64,000 nucleotides of DNA from a bacterium (GCA_965216635.1 OZ244188.1:991058-1055057), one strand, 5' to 3'. Counted from the first letter of the stretch, positions 26,612 to 32,738 are shown. A program made the numbers and translations. Notes: generated from the sequence alone by a model not told the origin.

Positions 26612-27577
26612 TTAATTCGCTTTAACAGTGTCAATCAAAAACTTATAAAATTCTTCTGCTTTATCGTAATACTCTTTTTGAAGAAATGAAAATGGAAAAC
26701 TTTTATTTTCTACAACATCAGGACTTACAGTAGGGCTGTAATTCTCACTTGTTACTTTTGTGGCTTCTCTTTTCATTTCTAGTTTGGCTAAAATACTTGC
26801 CATTTCTTCTCTATCTTTTTTTTCTAAAGCAGATATTTTTTTTCCAAATTCACTTTTAACATAAATTTCTCCATCCGTGTCGGGACTAATAGCTTTTAAT
26901 TCATTTAGCAGATTTTCTAATTTTTTTAATTTTTTGTTGTATTCAATAGAATAGTCTCTTAAAAAAACTTTTAATACCATCAAAATTTCACTGAAGCTCA
27001 GACTCTCTTGAAAGGCTACCTGTTTGATTTTAATGAGTTCTTTTTGCTCTAGTGTTTTTATAAAATTTTCTTGCAGTATATGATAAAAAGCATCCTGTTG
27101 TATATCGTAATCATTGGTATAAGGAAATCTCATATAGTTTATTAATTTCTTTTTATTATTTTCAAAAACAACATCCGCTTGAATTTTTTTTGAAATTTTT
27201 TCACCCTCATCGGATAACTGCAAAGGTGATTGGGATTTTAACAAACCTTTTTCTTTAAGAACAACTACTAGAGAAGTCAATTCTCTCGCTATTTCAGAGA
27301 TTGTCGTAATGGTCGCTTCAAATTTTTCATTTATTCTATCAAATTTTCTATCTACAGCATCAAATTTTCTATTAAAGGTAGCATTGTTCTCTTCAAATTT
27401 TCTATTAAAGGTAGCATTGTTCTCTTCAAATTTTCTATTAAAGGTAGCATTGTTCTCTTCAAATTTTTTATAAAACATTAGTTTTATAGAAAGTAGCAAG
27501 ATAATAGCTAAAAGTATAAAAATAACACTATCCCCTGTTATACCTGTAATCTGCAAAAAGTTAATTATGTTTTGCAT
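26612..27577 (-). CDS. Membrane-anchored coiled-coil protein with 3x11-aa repeat
   Basis: N-terminal TM, (KFEENNATFNR)x3. Confidence 0.7.
   Translation of the reverse strand: MQNIINFLQITGITGDSVIFILLAIILLLSIKLMFYKKFEENNATFNRKFEENNATFNRKFEENNATFNRKFDAVDRKFDRINEKFEATITTISEIARELTSLVVVLKEKGLLKSQSPLQLSDEGEKISKKIQADVVFENNKKKLINYMRFPYTNDYDIQQDAFYHILQENFIKTLEQKELIKIKQVAFQESLSFSEILMVLKVFLRDYSIEYNKKLKKLENLLNELKAISPDTDGEIYVKSEFGKKISALEKKDREEMASILAKLEMKREATKVTSENYSPTVSPDVVENKSFPFSFLQKEYYDKAEEFYKFLIDTVKAN
27362..27466 (-). repeat. 3x33-bp perfect coding tandem repeat
   Basis: AAATTTTCTATTAAAGGTAGCATTGTTCTCTTC at 27362, 27395 and 27428. Confidence 0.95.
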
Positions 27578-27590
27578 ATTTTAAAAATTC

Positions 27591-28514
27591 CTAATTGATA
27601 GATTCTGCTCCAGAAATAATTTCTGTTAGCTCTGTTGTAATGTTTGCTTGTCTCGCTCTGTTGTATTGGATTTGCAATTTGCTAATTAAATCATTAGCGT
27701 TATTCGTGGCAGAATCCATAACCCGCATCCTAGAAGCATGCTCGCAAGCAAAATTATCCAAAAGACAAAGATAGCAAAGGTTTTCAAGGTAGGTCGGGAT
27801 GAGCTGTTCACAGACTTCTTTAGTGGAGGGTTCAAAAATAAAATCTGCTAATTCTGTGTTTTCGTCCTTCTTTTTATTTACAATTTGCTCTGACTCTGTT
27901 CTTTCTGTATTTGGTTTTTCTGGTTCTGTTGGGAGTGCTAAAGGTAGCAATTTTTGAATACAAGGCTCTTGTGTAATAGCAGATTTGAAATAATTAAAAG
28001 CAAGGTAAATTGCTTTGTATTCTCCGTTTAAAAAATCTCTGATCAGACTTTGGGCTGATTTTGGCACCTCTTGTTTGAGAATATTTTCTTTTAATCTATA
28101 ATGCCCGTTTTGAATAGAAAAATCTTTGCTCTGAAAAAAATCTTTCCCTTTTTTTCCGATGATGAATAATTCCGGGTTAAGCTGTTTTTCGCTCATAAAA
28201 CTCTCCAATTTTTTGCACAAACTAGAATTTAAAGCACCGCAAAGTCCTCTATCCGAAGTATAGAGTAAAATTGCTACTTTTTGATCCGCTTGTTCTGTTT
28301 CTTCCTTTTCTAAAAAGACCTCTAAATGCTCAACTGCTTTTTGTTGTAAAGATAAAACCATTTCTTTAAGGGCTTGGTTATAATACCTACTATTTTCTAT
28401 GTCTAGTCTAGCACGGTGCAATTTAGACGCAGAAATCATAGTCATAGCTCTCGTGATCTTCTGTGTGTTTTGAACGGAAACTATTCTTTTACGAATTTCT
28501 TTAAGGTTTGCCAT
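27591..28514 (-). CDS. atpG: ATP synthase gamma subunit
   Basis: MANLKEIRKRI, SDRGLCG, RQANITTELTEIISGA; start moved to 28514. Confidence 0.97.
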   Translation of the reverse strand: MANLKEIRKRIVSVQNTQKITRAMTMISASKLHRARLDIENSRYYNQALKEMVLSLQQKAVEHLEVFLEKEETEQADQKVAILLYTSDRGLCGALNSSLCKKLESFMSEKQLNPELFIIGKKGKDFFQSKDFSIQNGHYRLKENILKQEVPKSAQSLIRDFLNGEYKAIYLAFNYFKSAITQEPCIQKLLPLALPTEPEKPNTERTESEQIVNKKKDENTELADFIFEPSTKEVCEQLIPTYLENLCYLCLLDNFACEHASRMRVMDSATNNANDLISKLQIQYNRARQANITTELTEIISGAESIN

Positions 28515-28533: not shown

Positions 28534-28923
28534 TTATCCCCAAAGCCGTTTGATCTGCAGCCGAATAGATTTGTCTGCAATTCTAGTAAATCTATACCTT
28601 TGTTTATAAAGAATAGGTACAGCTACATTGTTAATAGTTACTCTAATACCTAATGTGTTTGTACTGTAACTAAATTTTTTTTTATCAGCACTAGTAAAGT
28701 CTTTATTCATAATAGTAATATCCTGCGGTGTTGCCTCTGCTCTTCCAATATGTTTAATTTGATAACCATCCGCTATAGCAATCAAATCTCCTTCTTGGAC
28801 ACTACTAAAGTTTCTTGTACTTCTATAAGCAAAAACAATTTCATACTTTAAAAAAACATCCATAATAGAAAACTTTTTGTTTCCTTGAGAATGCCAATTT
28901 GAACCTACTTTCCAAATTTCCAT
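28534..28923 (-). CDS. Hypothetical protein, possible EVE/PUA-like domain
   Basis: IWKVGSNW...QEGDLIAIADG...IG pattern; tightly spaced to atpG. Confidence 0.55.
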   Translation of the reverse strand: MEIWKVGSNWHSQGNKKFSIMDVFLKYEIVFAYRSTRNFSSVQEGDLIAIADGYQIKHIGRAEATPQDITIMNKDFTSADKKKFSYSTNTLGIRVTINNVAVPILYKQRYRFTRIADKSIRLQIKRLWG

Positions 28924-28956
28924 AGTTTTTATATTAAATTAAGCTATTGAACTGGT

Positions 28957-28987
28957 TAAAATCTTTTTAGGAAAAACTAAAGCTATT
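28957..28987. repeat. 31-bp direct repeat, copy duplicated from menA 3' end
   Basis: TAAAATCTTTTTAGGAAAAACTAAAGCTATT identical at 28957-28987 and 29669-29699. Confidence 0.9.
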
Positions 28988-28990
28988 TCC

Positions 28991-29131
28991 TCATTCAAAG
29001 GTAATAAAAGCTACAATGCCAATAATAGTAGCCCAAGTATGAATCCAACCTATGTTTCTATTTTTGGTAGAATTTAATAATTTTTTATCACTTTTACCTA
29101 TTTTTATTTTTTTTAGGTGTGGAGGATTCAT
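28991..29131 (-). CDS. 46-aa small ORF with C-terminal hydrophobic helix
   Basis: Manual translation MNPPHLKKIKIGKSDKKLLNSTKNRNIGWIHTWATIIGIVAFITFE; ATG directly follows the Panacea stop. Confidence 0.5.
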   Translation of the reverse strand: MNPPHLKKIKIGKSDKKLLNSTKNRNIGWIHTWATIIGIVAFITFE

Positions 29132-29623
29132 TTAAGCCAATACTTCCTTTTTAAAATATTCTTTTATTACTTCAGCATCAATTTCAATATTTATTTTTCC
29201 TTCTTCATAGAATTTATCCCAAGGAGTGCCCGTATCGTGTGTTCTATCTATTAACTCTCCCGTAGGCATATCACCATATTCTTCCTTGATAACCTTTAGA
29301 GTTTCAAATGCTTCTTCATCGTCCTCATCTATCATAGGATAAATGAGCTTATCTTTGACTGGGTTATGAATATAAGAAAGCTCTTTAATTTTGCCGTAGC
29401 TATATTTTTTAAACTCGTGGTAGATAGAAGGAATCACGGGACCCAAACGCCAAGCCTGTATAGGCTCTTTAAACAAAATTCTATTGTAATAAGCGTAAGC
29501 CACTCCAAAAGCAAGATAGACAAATTTATTGAGTCTAATATTATCTACATAATCTAAATTATCTATAAAGTAATTCGCCAGATGTGCTGGAGTATAATAT
29601 TTGTTTTCTTTTTTTTTAGTCAT
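29132..29623 (-). CDS. Panacea-domain (DUF4065, SocA/GepA-like) antitoxin
   Basis: RLNKFVY...LFKEPIQAWRLGPVIPSIY...THDTGTPW. Confidence 0.85.
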   Translation of the reverse strand: MTKKKENKYYTPAHLANYFIDNLDYVDNIRLNKFVYLAFGVAYAYYNRILFKEPIQAWRLGPVIPSIYHEFKKYSYGKIKELSYIHNPVKDKLIYPMIDEDDEEAFETLKVIKEEYGDMPTGELIDRTHDTGTPWDKFYEEGKINIEIDAEVIKEYFKKEVLA

Positions 29624-29650
29624 TTTTCAAAATTTAAGTTTCTCCATAAT

Positions 29651-30613
29651 TTAAGAAATTATTAAAGGTAAAATCTTTTTAGGAAAAACTAAAGCTATTC
29701 CATAAGATAAGGCAATAAAAAACACAAAGAAACAATGTTTAGTATGAAATACATTATATTTTTTTTTAATTCTGCCGAGAGAAAAATTTATTTTAATAAG
29801 TGGTAAATAACATATTAGAAAAAGCCACTGATACCAATATAAAAATCTATAACTACTAGCCAAAATAAAAAAAGCTAAACTAACAAGAATAATTATTTTT
29901 TGATATAATTTTGCTTTTTTTTCTCCTAATCTAATAGCAATAGTTTTTCGTCCTCCTTTCTTATCAGACTTTATATCGCGAATATTGTTTAAATTGATTG
30001 CTGAGACAGCTAAAGTTCCTATAGCGATAGATTCTAAAAATAAAAAGTGATTGTAATTTAAGGTCAATAAAAAATAGCTTCCAATCACACCAACGGGTCC
30101 CTCAAAAATAAATATAGAAATATCTCCCAATCCAGTTTTACTATGAGGAGTTATTCCTAAACTATATTTTAGAGCTGCCCATAAGCAAAGCAATCCAATC
30201 AAAAACCATAGCCAGAAATAAAAAGATGTTATACTCTTAAAAGAAAAAAATAAAAGGACTACGCTTAGAAATATACAAAAAATTACTGCTGCAATGATTA
30301 TAGTTTTTATTGCTTTAGCAGAAATTTTTCCTGATCCAAATATTCTTTCAGGTCCTATTCTATTTTTACCATCTATTCCTCTTATACCATCTCCGTAATC
30401 ATTCGCCACAGATGCTACAAATTCTAAACAGGCGGCTGTTAGCAAAAGCAAAATACTCAGTTTCCAAGAAAAAAATCCATCCTCAAGGGCTAAAAAAATG
30501 CCTATTACAATAGAAGAAATAATTGTTAATATAAATTGAACTCTAATTAACTTCAAATAAACTAATTTTTTACTTAAGTTAATAATTTTAAATTTTTTTA
30601 TTTCTAAAAACAC
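29651..30613 (-). CDS. menA: 1,4-dihydroxy-2-naphthoate prenyltransferase (UbiA family)
   Basis: ANDYGDGIRGIDG..RIGPER and NNIRDIKSDKKGGRKTIAIRLG motifs. Confidence 0.85.
   Translation of the reverse strand: MFLEIKKFKIINLSKKLVYLKLIRVQFILTIISSIVIGIFLALEDGFFSWKLSILLLLTAACLEFVASVANDYGDGIRGIDGKNRIGPERIFGSGKISAKAIKTIIIAAVIFCIFLSVVLLFFSFKSITSFYFWLWFLIGLLCLWAALKYSLGITPHSKTGLGDISIFIFEGPVGVIGSYFLLTLNYNHFLFLESIAIGTLAVSAINLNNIRDIKSDKKGGRKTIAIRLGEKKAKLYQKIIILVSLAFFILASSYRFLYWYQWLFLICYLPLIKINFSLGRIKKKYNVFHTKHCFFVFFIALSYGIALVFPKKILPLIIS

Positions 30614-30646: not shown

Positions 30647-32738
<2,092 letters not shown>

Follow-up and report, generated by a model that had tools for sequence, protein, structure and literature searches.

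A probable scar of recombined slot alleles around a decaying Panacea toxin-antitoxin module in a bacterial ATP synthase operon

In a 64,000-nucleotide (nt) stretch of bacterial DNA (GCA_965216635.1 OZ244188.1:991058-1055057; hereafter the window, with positions counted from its first letter), two identical 31-bp sequences flank a small unit consisting of a gene for a Panacea-domain antitoxin (PanA) and an abutting open reading frame (ORF) of 46 amino acids (aa). We consider it probable that this 712-bp unit is a decaying PanA-PanT toxin-antitoxin (PanAT) module in a polymorphic slot between the ATP synthase genes atpA and atpG, and that the repeat is a scar of recombined slot alleles rather than an attachment (att) site. 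As decayed toxin-antitoxin modules go, it is fairly ordinary, and its history is instructive; scar and toxin type are both of known kinds. On this reading the locus would provide a clean, dated example of toxin-antitoxin cargo that was shuffled, and then decayed, inside an essential operon. The slot can be seen in four alleles, and the stacked form shows its joint at single-base resolution.

The 31-bp repeat and the alleles of the atpA-atpG slot

The exact 31-mer TAAAATCTTTTTAGGAAAAACTAAAGCTATT is found at 28957-28987 and at 29669-29699, with a start-to-start distance of 712 nt, and its two copies bracket the Panacea gene and the 46-aa ORF as the original prediction had stated. With up to three mismatches allowed, it has two matches in the window, against none in 100 dinucleotide-preserving shuffles, and these two copies are also the only ones on both strands of the genome, a single contig of 2,394,643 bp with 33.8% G+C. 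Such a pair is not expected by chance. The proximal copy (29669..29699) encodes IALVFPKKIL within the tail of the working menA2 gene (...IALVFPKKILPLIIS, then a stop codon), and the distal copy reads on as ...IALVFPKKILTSSIA to a stop of its own (...ILTSSIA). A weak similarity (53 nt, 81%) continues beyond the 31-mer, on the side downstream of the stop codons.

All genes of the region lie on the minus strand, in the order atpA, menA2, PanA, the 46-aa ORF, the distal 31-mer, ORF129 and atpG. The gene menA2 (29651..30613), apparently intact, is a second, inserted copy encoding 1,4-dihydroxy-2-naphthoate polyprenyltransferase. PanA (29132..29623) starts 27 nt past the menA2 stop, and the ATG of the 46-aa ORF (28991..29131) directly abuts the PanA stop. 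The distal 31-mer lies 3 nt past this ORF and is followed by a displaced A-type menA2 tail and stop (28939-28956; together 28939..28987), and ORF129 (28534..28923) begins 15 nt after that stop. The displaced tail and the 46-aa ORF are in different reading frames.

In G001, the only family-level relative available, the operon is contiguous (atpF'-F-H-A-G-D-C) and atpG starts 4 nt after atpA, so all of the window's DNA between these two genes, menA2 included, is inserted. Contigs of metagenomic relatives were recovered through protein searches with menA2 and PanA, the menA2 relatives being 79-83% identical. Allele A (contig L042) reads atpA, menA2, 12 nt, ORF157 and atpG, without Panacea and with a single menA2 tail (ILPLIT before the stop); contig L041 carries nearly the same A-type junction. 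A comparison of menA ends among relatives, which had been put forward as a check on the cassette, therefore finds that an empty-site allele does exist (L042 and L041). Allele B (L046) reads atpA, menA2, 75 nt, PanA (165 aa), PanT (96 aa), 6 nt and atpG, without ORF157 and with one tail, and allele D (L050) reads atpA, PanA, a PanT variant and atpG, without menA2. L041 and L046 (ENA contigs, sample ERZ26869290) are partly palindromic, and only their non-inverted parts were used. The whole of L041 and positions 2914-3394 of L046 hold inverted copies of menA2, atpA or atpG, which looks like assembly or amplification chimerism.

Despite these three different slot contents, atpG of L042, L046 and L050 is 97.5-99.7% identical between contigs. 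Near-identical atpG genes next to different cargo indicate that the slot is polymorphic within one species-level population. The window genome shares ~84-85% DNA identity with that population in atpA, menA2, PanA and atpG; synonymous divergence (dS) to the relatives is 0.84-0.94 for PanA, ORF129/157 and atpG alike.

Set beside these alleles, the window appears to be a composite, with allele B on its left and allele A on its right. It aligns with L046 from menA2 through its tail (CCTTTAATAATTTCTTAA after the proximal repeat, against CCTTTAATAGTTTTTTAA in the B-type tail of L046) and PanA, and the similarity runs into PanT to about codon 46 and then ends. From the distal 31-mer on, the window aligns with L042 through the tail, the intergenic TTTAATATAAAAACT, the start of ORF129/157 (ATGGAAATTTGG) and atpG; the A-type junction TTTAATATAAAAA(C/T)TATGGAAATTTGGAAAGTAG is present in L041 as well. 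The proposal that the distal repeat is the displaced original end of menA has thus held up, since the repeat, the next 15 nt and the ORF129 start are colinear with the junction of menA2 tail, intergenic sequence and ORF157 start in these Panacea-less relatives.

The 31-mer itself would be the stretch of menA2 tail common to both alleles. Its upstream (inner) edge appears to be the joint that cuts PanT, and its downstream (outer) edge the point at which the A and B tails diverge. The motif occurs once in allele A, once in allele B and not at all in allele D, which suggests that the repeat is a property of the stacked form and does not belong to the Panacea unit. Moreover, the distal copy is non-coding and has changed at 0 of 31 positions; with a divergence of as little as 0.1 per site, all 31 would stay unchanged with a probability of only ~0.045. 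Compared with a dS of 0.5-0.9 to the relatives, an unchanged non-coding repeat suggests that the joint is young relative to the split from the relatives.

The menA gene of the window matches TIGR00751 (5.2e-53, 180.3 bits against a cut-off of 102.15) and PF01040 (1.6e-23), and it is 55% identical to a syntenic menA at C1:516547 (C1:516547-517452, 294 aa), which shares its upstream neighbour with the menA of G001. The C1:516547 gene appears to be the ancestral menA and the window gene the second copy, which looks functional and under purifying selection (ratio of nonsynonymous to synonymous substitution, omega, of 0.18 against the relatives' menA2). L050 and G001 have no menA2 in the slot, where the gene is optional cargo. 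The original prediction had placed the integration at the menA 3' end: the repeat does lie in the menA2 tail, yet this wording is misleading as to the target, which is the atpA-atpG slot.

At the borders of the slot, atpA (ATP synthase alpha, 30647..32197, minus strand, 516-aa ORF) lies upstream and can be aligned with its G001 counterpart and with the ends of atpA on contigs L042, L046 and L050, and atpG (ATP synthase gamma, 27591..28514, minus strand; PF00231 at 1.2e-90) lies downstream, with a start, MANLKEIRKR, common to the window, G001, L042, L046 and L050. No terminator-like site was found between atpA and atpG, so the inserts are probably co-transcribed with the atp genes by read-through; promoter-like matches in the region were no commoner than in shuffled sequence. 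Between atpG and atpD we also noted a repeat-rich protein of 321 aa in the window (26612-27577) and 350 aa in L042 (2471-3523), not present in G001, in which the length of the repeat block varies (NATFNRKFEEN in the window, NKFDAID in the relatives).

PanA, the truncated PanT and ORF129

The 163-aa PanA is intact and matches PF13274 (SocA_Panacea) at E 1.9e-16 over residues 31-135 (61.4 bits against a cut-off of 25.7). Its orthologue at the same slot in L046 shares 78% aa and 81% nt identity with it. The omega of 0.135 between them mostly reflects the time before the truncation described below and says little on present function. PanA belongs to the same Panacea fold family as SocA of the Caulobacter SocAB system (NCBIfam NF047745, 74.6 bits over residues 12-160). 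However, equivalogs must reach 190 bits, and with a score so far short of this PanA was ruled out as a SocA equivalog; its partner is a membrane peptide, not SocB.

The 46-aa ORF appears to be the N-terminal stump of a PanT, namely the first 46 codons of a membrane toxin gene of ~96 codons, cut at the joint. It aligns with the first ~46 residues of the 96-aa PanT of L046 (BLASTP 2e-6; 49% identity over 45 codons in a global alignment), and the two share the motif RN(I/T)GW(I/L)HTW(A/V)T. Hydropathy was profiled for eight proteins, comprising the stump, the L046 PanT and six membrane partners of PanA from the window's own genome. Two hydrophobic segments were seen in all seven full-length proteins, against a single, weaker one in the stump, whose first helix reaches a Kyte-Doolittle value of 1.71 compared with 3.17 in the L046 PanT. 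The stump is thus without the second segment and without its small-xxx-small (G/A/S-xxx-G) motif, which is seen in the listed full-length paralogues. We infer that its toxicity has been lost, and PanA is probably orphaned, its cognate toxin now being truncated. For annotation, the fitting label is PanT fragment for the 46-aa ORF and probable orphan for PanA. The peptide had been predicted to be either a new small membrane toxin or a toxin stump; the alignment with the PanT start favours the stump, and the missing second segment makes a new toxin unlikely. Neither the stump nor the 96-aa PanT nor ORF129/157 could be placed in a significantly matching family of Pfam, NCBIfam, PADLOC or PHROGs.

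We also weighed whether the 46-aa ORF could be a working, type I-like single-helix membrane toxin checked by PanA, the two forming a functional minimal toxin-antitoxin module. Single-helix toxins of fewer than 50 aa exist, and here the ORF is intact, its ATG abuts the PanA stop, the GW(I/L)HTW motif is kept and PanA itself is intact. The basic N-terminus (+7 over 27 residues) and the 19-residue hydrophobic stretch would also suit such a toxin, and HokB, a toxin used as a comparator in the study of PanTs (PMC8832971), could be cited in the same sense. Nevertheless, the much lower hydrophobicity of the remaining helix and the loss of the second segment with its motif speak against a working toxin, as do an omega of 0.67 over the 45 codons and the coincidence of the truncation with the recombination joint. 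We therefore regard this explanation as unlikely, although it keeps some small chance.

Validated PanTs include proteins with a charged N-terminus and C-terminal transmembrane segments that depolarise membranes (clusters T3/T12, with examples from E. coli STEC O31 and Bartonella apis), and PanA neutralises its toxin by complex formation (Kurata et al. 2022, PMC8832971). By analogy with other PanAT pairs, the PanA of the window would have neutralised its toxin by direct binding. The arrangement of an antitoxin gene upstream of an abutting or overlapping toxin gene is found in the L046 orthologue and at 15 other loci of this genome, and the two-segment membrane architecture of the L046 PanT and of the six own-genome paralogues resembles the published pairs, the likeness to T3/T12 being one of architecture only. 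Unlike those pairs, the module of the window has its toxin gene cut after codon 46, so that the pair is probably defunct, and it resides inside the atp operon rather than in a prophage or plasmid.

ORF129, the orphan gene of the A-type allele, is homologous to ORF157 of L042 (1109-1582), with 35% aa identity and an omega of 0.70, compared with 87% identity between the atpG proteins of the same relatives. The two share the conserved motif EGDLIAI(A/S)DG. As a candidate for the real Panacea-controlled toxin ORF129 was ruled out, because its homologue ORF157 adjoins menA2 without any PanA in L042.

Origin of the stacked form

The explanation we favour starts from a population carrying at least two slot alleles, A (menA2-ORF129/157-atpG) and B (menA2-PanA-PanT-atpG). 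A segment of B, running from the menA2 tail through PanA to the first 46 codons of PanT, would have been joined illegitimately to an A allele at the point where its menA2 tail begins, and the other crossover would have been supplied by the homologous flank. As to the enzymology, several routes may be proposed. For example, double-strand-break repair may have copied from the other allele and been completed by end joining. Alternatively, the joint may stem from homology-facilitated illegitimate recombination, or from the Campbell-type entry of a circularised fragment through the 31 nt of homology.

The second of these routes was reportedly described by de Vries and Wackernagel in 2002 in naturally transformable bacteria. 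The window resembles it in having one end in a homologous flank (menA2 or atpG) and the other at an illegitimate joint in non-homologous DNA. It differs in that the classical outcome is an insertion accompanied by a deletion in the recipient, not a duplication, and the mechanism is offered here as a proposal only.

A closer parallel may be insertion with long target duplication, described for restriction-modification units, in which inserts of <20 kb without mobility genes lie between direct repeats of variable length (>30 bp) whose sequence is single-copy in the insert-free genome (Furuta et al. 2010, PMC2853133). The locus studied here has a 31-bp repeat, a spacing of 712 bp and single-copy sites in L042 and L041, these comparison genomes being ~85% identical and not of the same species. 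Like the published cases, it involves a small selfish unit without a mobility gene, flanked by genome-unique direct repeats >30 bp that are single-copy in the insert-free allele. In contrast to them, the cargo is a toxin-antitoxin and not a restriction-modification unit, the donor is recognisable, being another allele of this slot, and the far end of the insert truncates the insert's own gene. An identifiable donor allele and a self-truncated gene together point to illegitimate recombination, allele by allele, rather than to a property of the cargo's enzymes. Long target duplication would thereby be extended from restriction-modification units to a PanAT module, and a concrete origin would be suggested for it, namely illegitimate recombination between alternative alleles of one slot.

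Several points weigh against this explanation. The relatives, only ~84-85% identical at the DNA level, included no A- or B-type parent of the window's own species, and both parental alleles are thus read from another species-level population. The A and B menA2 tails of those relatives differ at 3 of 31 positions whereas the two copies in the window are identical, so that either very similar parents or a later gene conversion would be required. The joint has little or no discernible microhomology. Three of the contigs used are imperfect: palindromic chimerism affects parts of L041 and L046, and the frameshifts in L050 may reflect sequencing errors. Finally, the purifying selection on PanA and the retention in the stump of the most conserved PanT motif may leave room for some residual function.

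A search of JGI metagenome contigs and GTDB genome contigs for the exact 31-mer gave no match. A degenerate pattern of the 31-mer had five matches; none of them encoded menA2, PanA, ORF129 or atpG, and they were set aside as chance matches.

A different history would make the stacked arrangement (menA2, tail, PanA, PanT, tail, ORF129, atpG) ancestral. Allele A would then stem from a deletion between the repeats, allele B from the loss of ORF157, and the window from an internal deletion in PanT. The similar dS of PanA, ORF129/157 and atpG would fit, as if the two cargo genes dated back to the split of the lineages, and a deletion between the 31-bp repeats gives exactly the A-type site. An old repeat, however, should have diverged, while the non-coding distal copy is identical at 31 of 31 positions and the next 18 nt differ strongly from the proximal tail. 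Furthermore, L046 retains no remnant of a second tail or of ORF157, and an internal deletion ending exactly at the edge of the repeat would be a coincidence. Taking both sides together, we hold an ancestral stack to be quite unlikely.

The original prediction had favoured an att-like insertion, that is, a discrete mobile cassette that could excise via the repeats. In its fuller form, the Panacea unit would integrate site-specifically at the menA 3' end with the 31-mer as an att-like core, and would leave as a circle through a recombinase encoded elsewhere. Integrase-less elements flanked by att sites are known, and an exact, unique 31-bp direct repeat does flank the small unit here, with a single-copy-site allele in relatives. 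The distribution of the module fits this model poorly, since L046 has PanA and PanT in the atpA-atpG slot next to a single menA2 tail, and L050 has them there with no menA2. The joint also cuts the cassette's own toxin gene, and the genome has no further copy of the 31-mer, the repeats at other PanA loci being locally derived and 31-133 nt long. No recombinase-family Pfam match was obtained among the ORFs scanned at ~19.8-37 kb of the window, a scan confined to the neighbourhood of the unit; these ORFs comprised trkH, trkA, atp subunits, menA2, PanA, tyrS, a weak sub-threshold match to an outer membrane protein (OMP) beta-barrel and several without a match. A self-mobile cassette is therefore not borne out and seems to us very improbable.

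An assembly artefact, in which a chimeric path joined two strain variants through a common 31-nt k-mer, might be suspected from a repeat length of exactly 31, a common k-mer length, and from a slot that is polymorphic in related populations, but it is hardly credible, because such a chimera needs a common word at each joint, the joint between truncated PanT and the 31-mer has no counterpart in A or B and must be carried by real molecules, and the genome is a single 2.39-Mb contig.

Panacea loci and stacked cassettes elsewhere in the genome

The 2.39-Mb genome contains 26 Panacea genes above the Pfam cut-off; the closest paralogues of the window's PanA lie at C1:961358 and C1:440515. In 15 cases the next ORF, 76-135 aa long, abuts or overlaps the Panacea gene; one of these partners is broken into two ORFs, apparently by a frameshift. 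The partners begin with a charged region, contain hydrophobic segments and, close to the C-terminus, carry a G/A/S-xxx-G motif. The membrane partners form an unnamed family with two subtypes, whose ends read ...(I/L)Gx(I/V)(I/V)G... or TTTxx(I/L)xGxWxxxGxxLF. Two further PanA genes precede YafQ-family toxins, and several have another or no obvious partner. With 26 loci, most of them with two-helix membrane partners, the genome offers a useful set for studies of PanA-PanT specificity.

Stacking was also observed at other slots. The genes comM and thyA, 24 nt apart in G001, are separated here by three cassettes (C1:257817-266860): a three-gene unit including a DNA methyltransferase-like gene, a 567-aa protein that by eye resembles DUF262 proteins, and a PanA-YafQ pair. 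The cassettes are set apart by the thyA 5' end, present in three copies of 98-133 nt, two of which share a joint between thyA codon 33 and the comM end. The same signature is seen at C1:243111-246832, where a PanAT pair and a four-gene cassette are set between three copies of the first ~12 codons and the upstream sequence of a gene for a 448-aa membrane protein (start MLTYAQIDKD). Neither the sequence nor the length of the repeats is the same from slot to slot, which argues for recombination scars and not for one site-specific system.

In a genome-wide scan for short direct repeats 200-6000 nt apart, the output was dominated by the genome's large paralogous families and by dispersed elements. 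At 13% of random genome positions, a flanking repeat of at least 31 nt is present within 2.5 kb on either side. Given this background, a flanking repeat is uninformative by itself in this genome, while a unique flanking repeat, as at the atpA-atpG slot, is informative.

One might go further and suppose that this lineage possesses a general, recombinase-independent process that stacks selfish cassettes (toxin-antitoxin, restriction-modification, DUF262) at fixed slots in or beside essential genes, each event duplicating 30-130 bp of the flanking gene end. Through the repeats, units would be able to leave as circles and then insert into other alleles by recombination at short homologies, and the Panacea unit of the window would still be excisable. 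If true, such stacking would explain the spread of the 26 PanA loci through the 2.4-Mb genome; we consider this generalisation speculative and of low probability.

At C1:1757762-1759375 a PanAT pair is tandemly duplicated (unit of ~1053-1117 nt), and its second PanT is decayed and reduced to a 25-aa stump. A dispersed element with pseudo-ORFs like MNLRYAYPTLGLAKWLEQ... lies near many PanA loci (e.g. C1:693573, 767597, 984000 and 2347801), and its core TTTGAATTTGCCAAATAGGACAAAACCAGCTGTT has 94 occurrences. Lastly, a CRISPR-like array at C1:2300464-2305900 comprises ~49 copies of the 36-nt repeat GTCACCAATCTACAAAATTCGTCCTCTATACACAAC with a period of ~66 nt.

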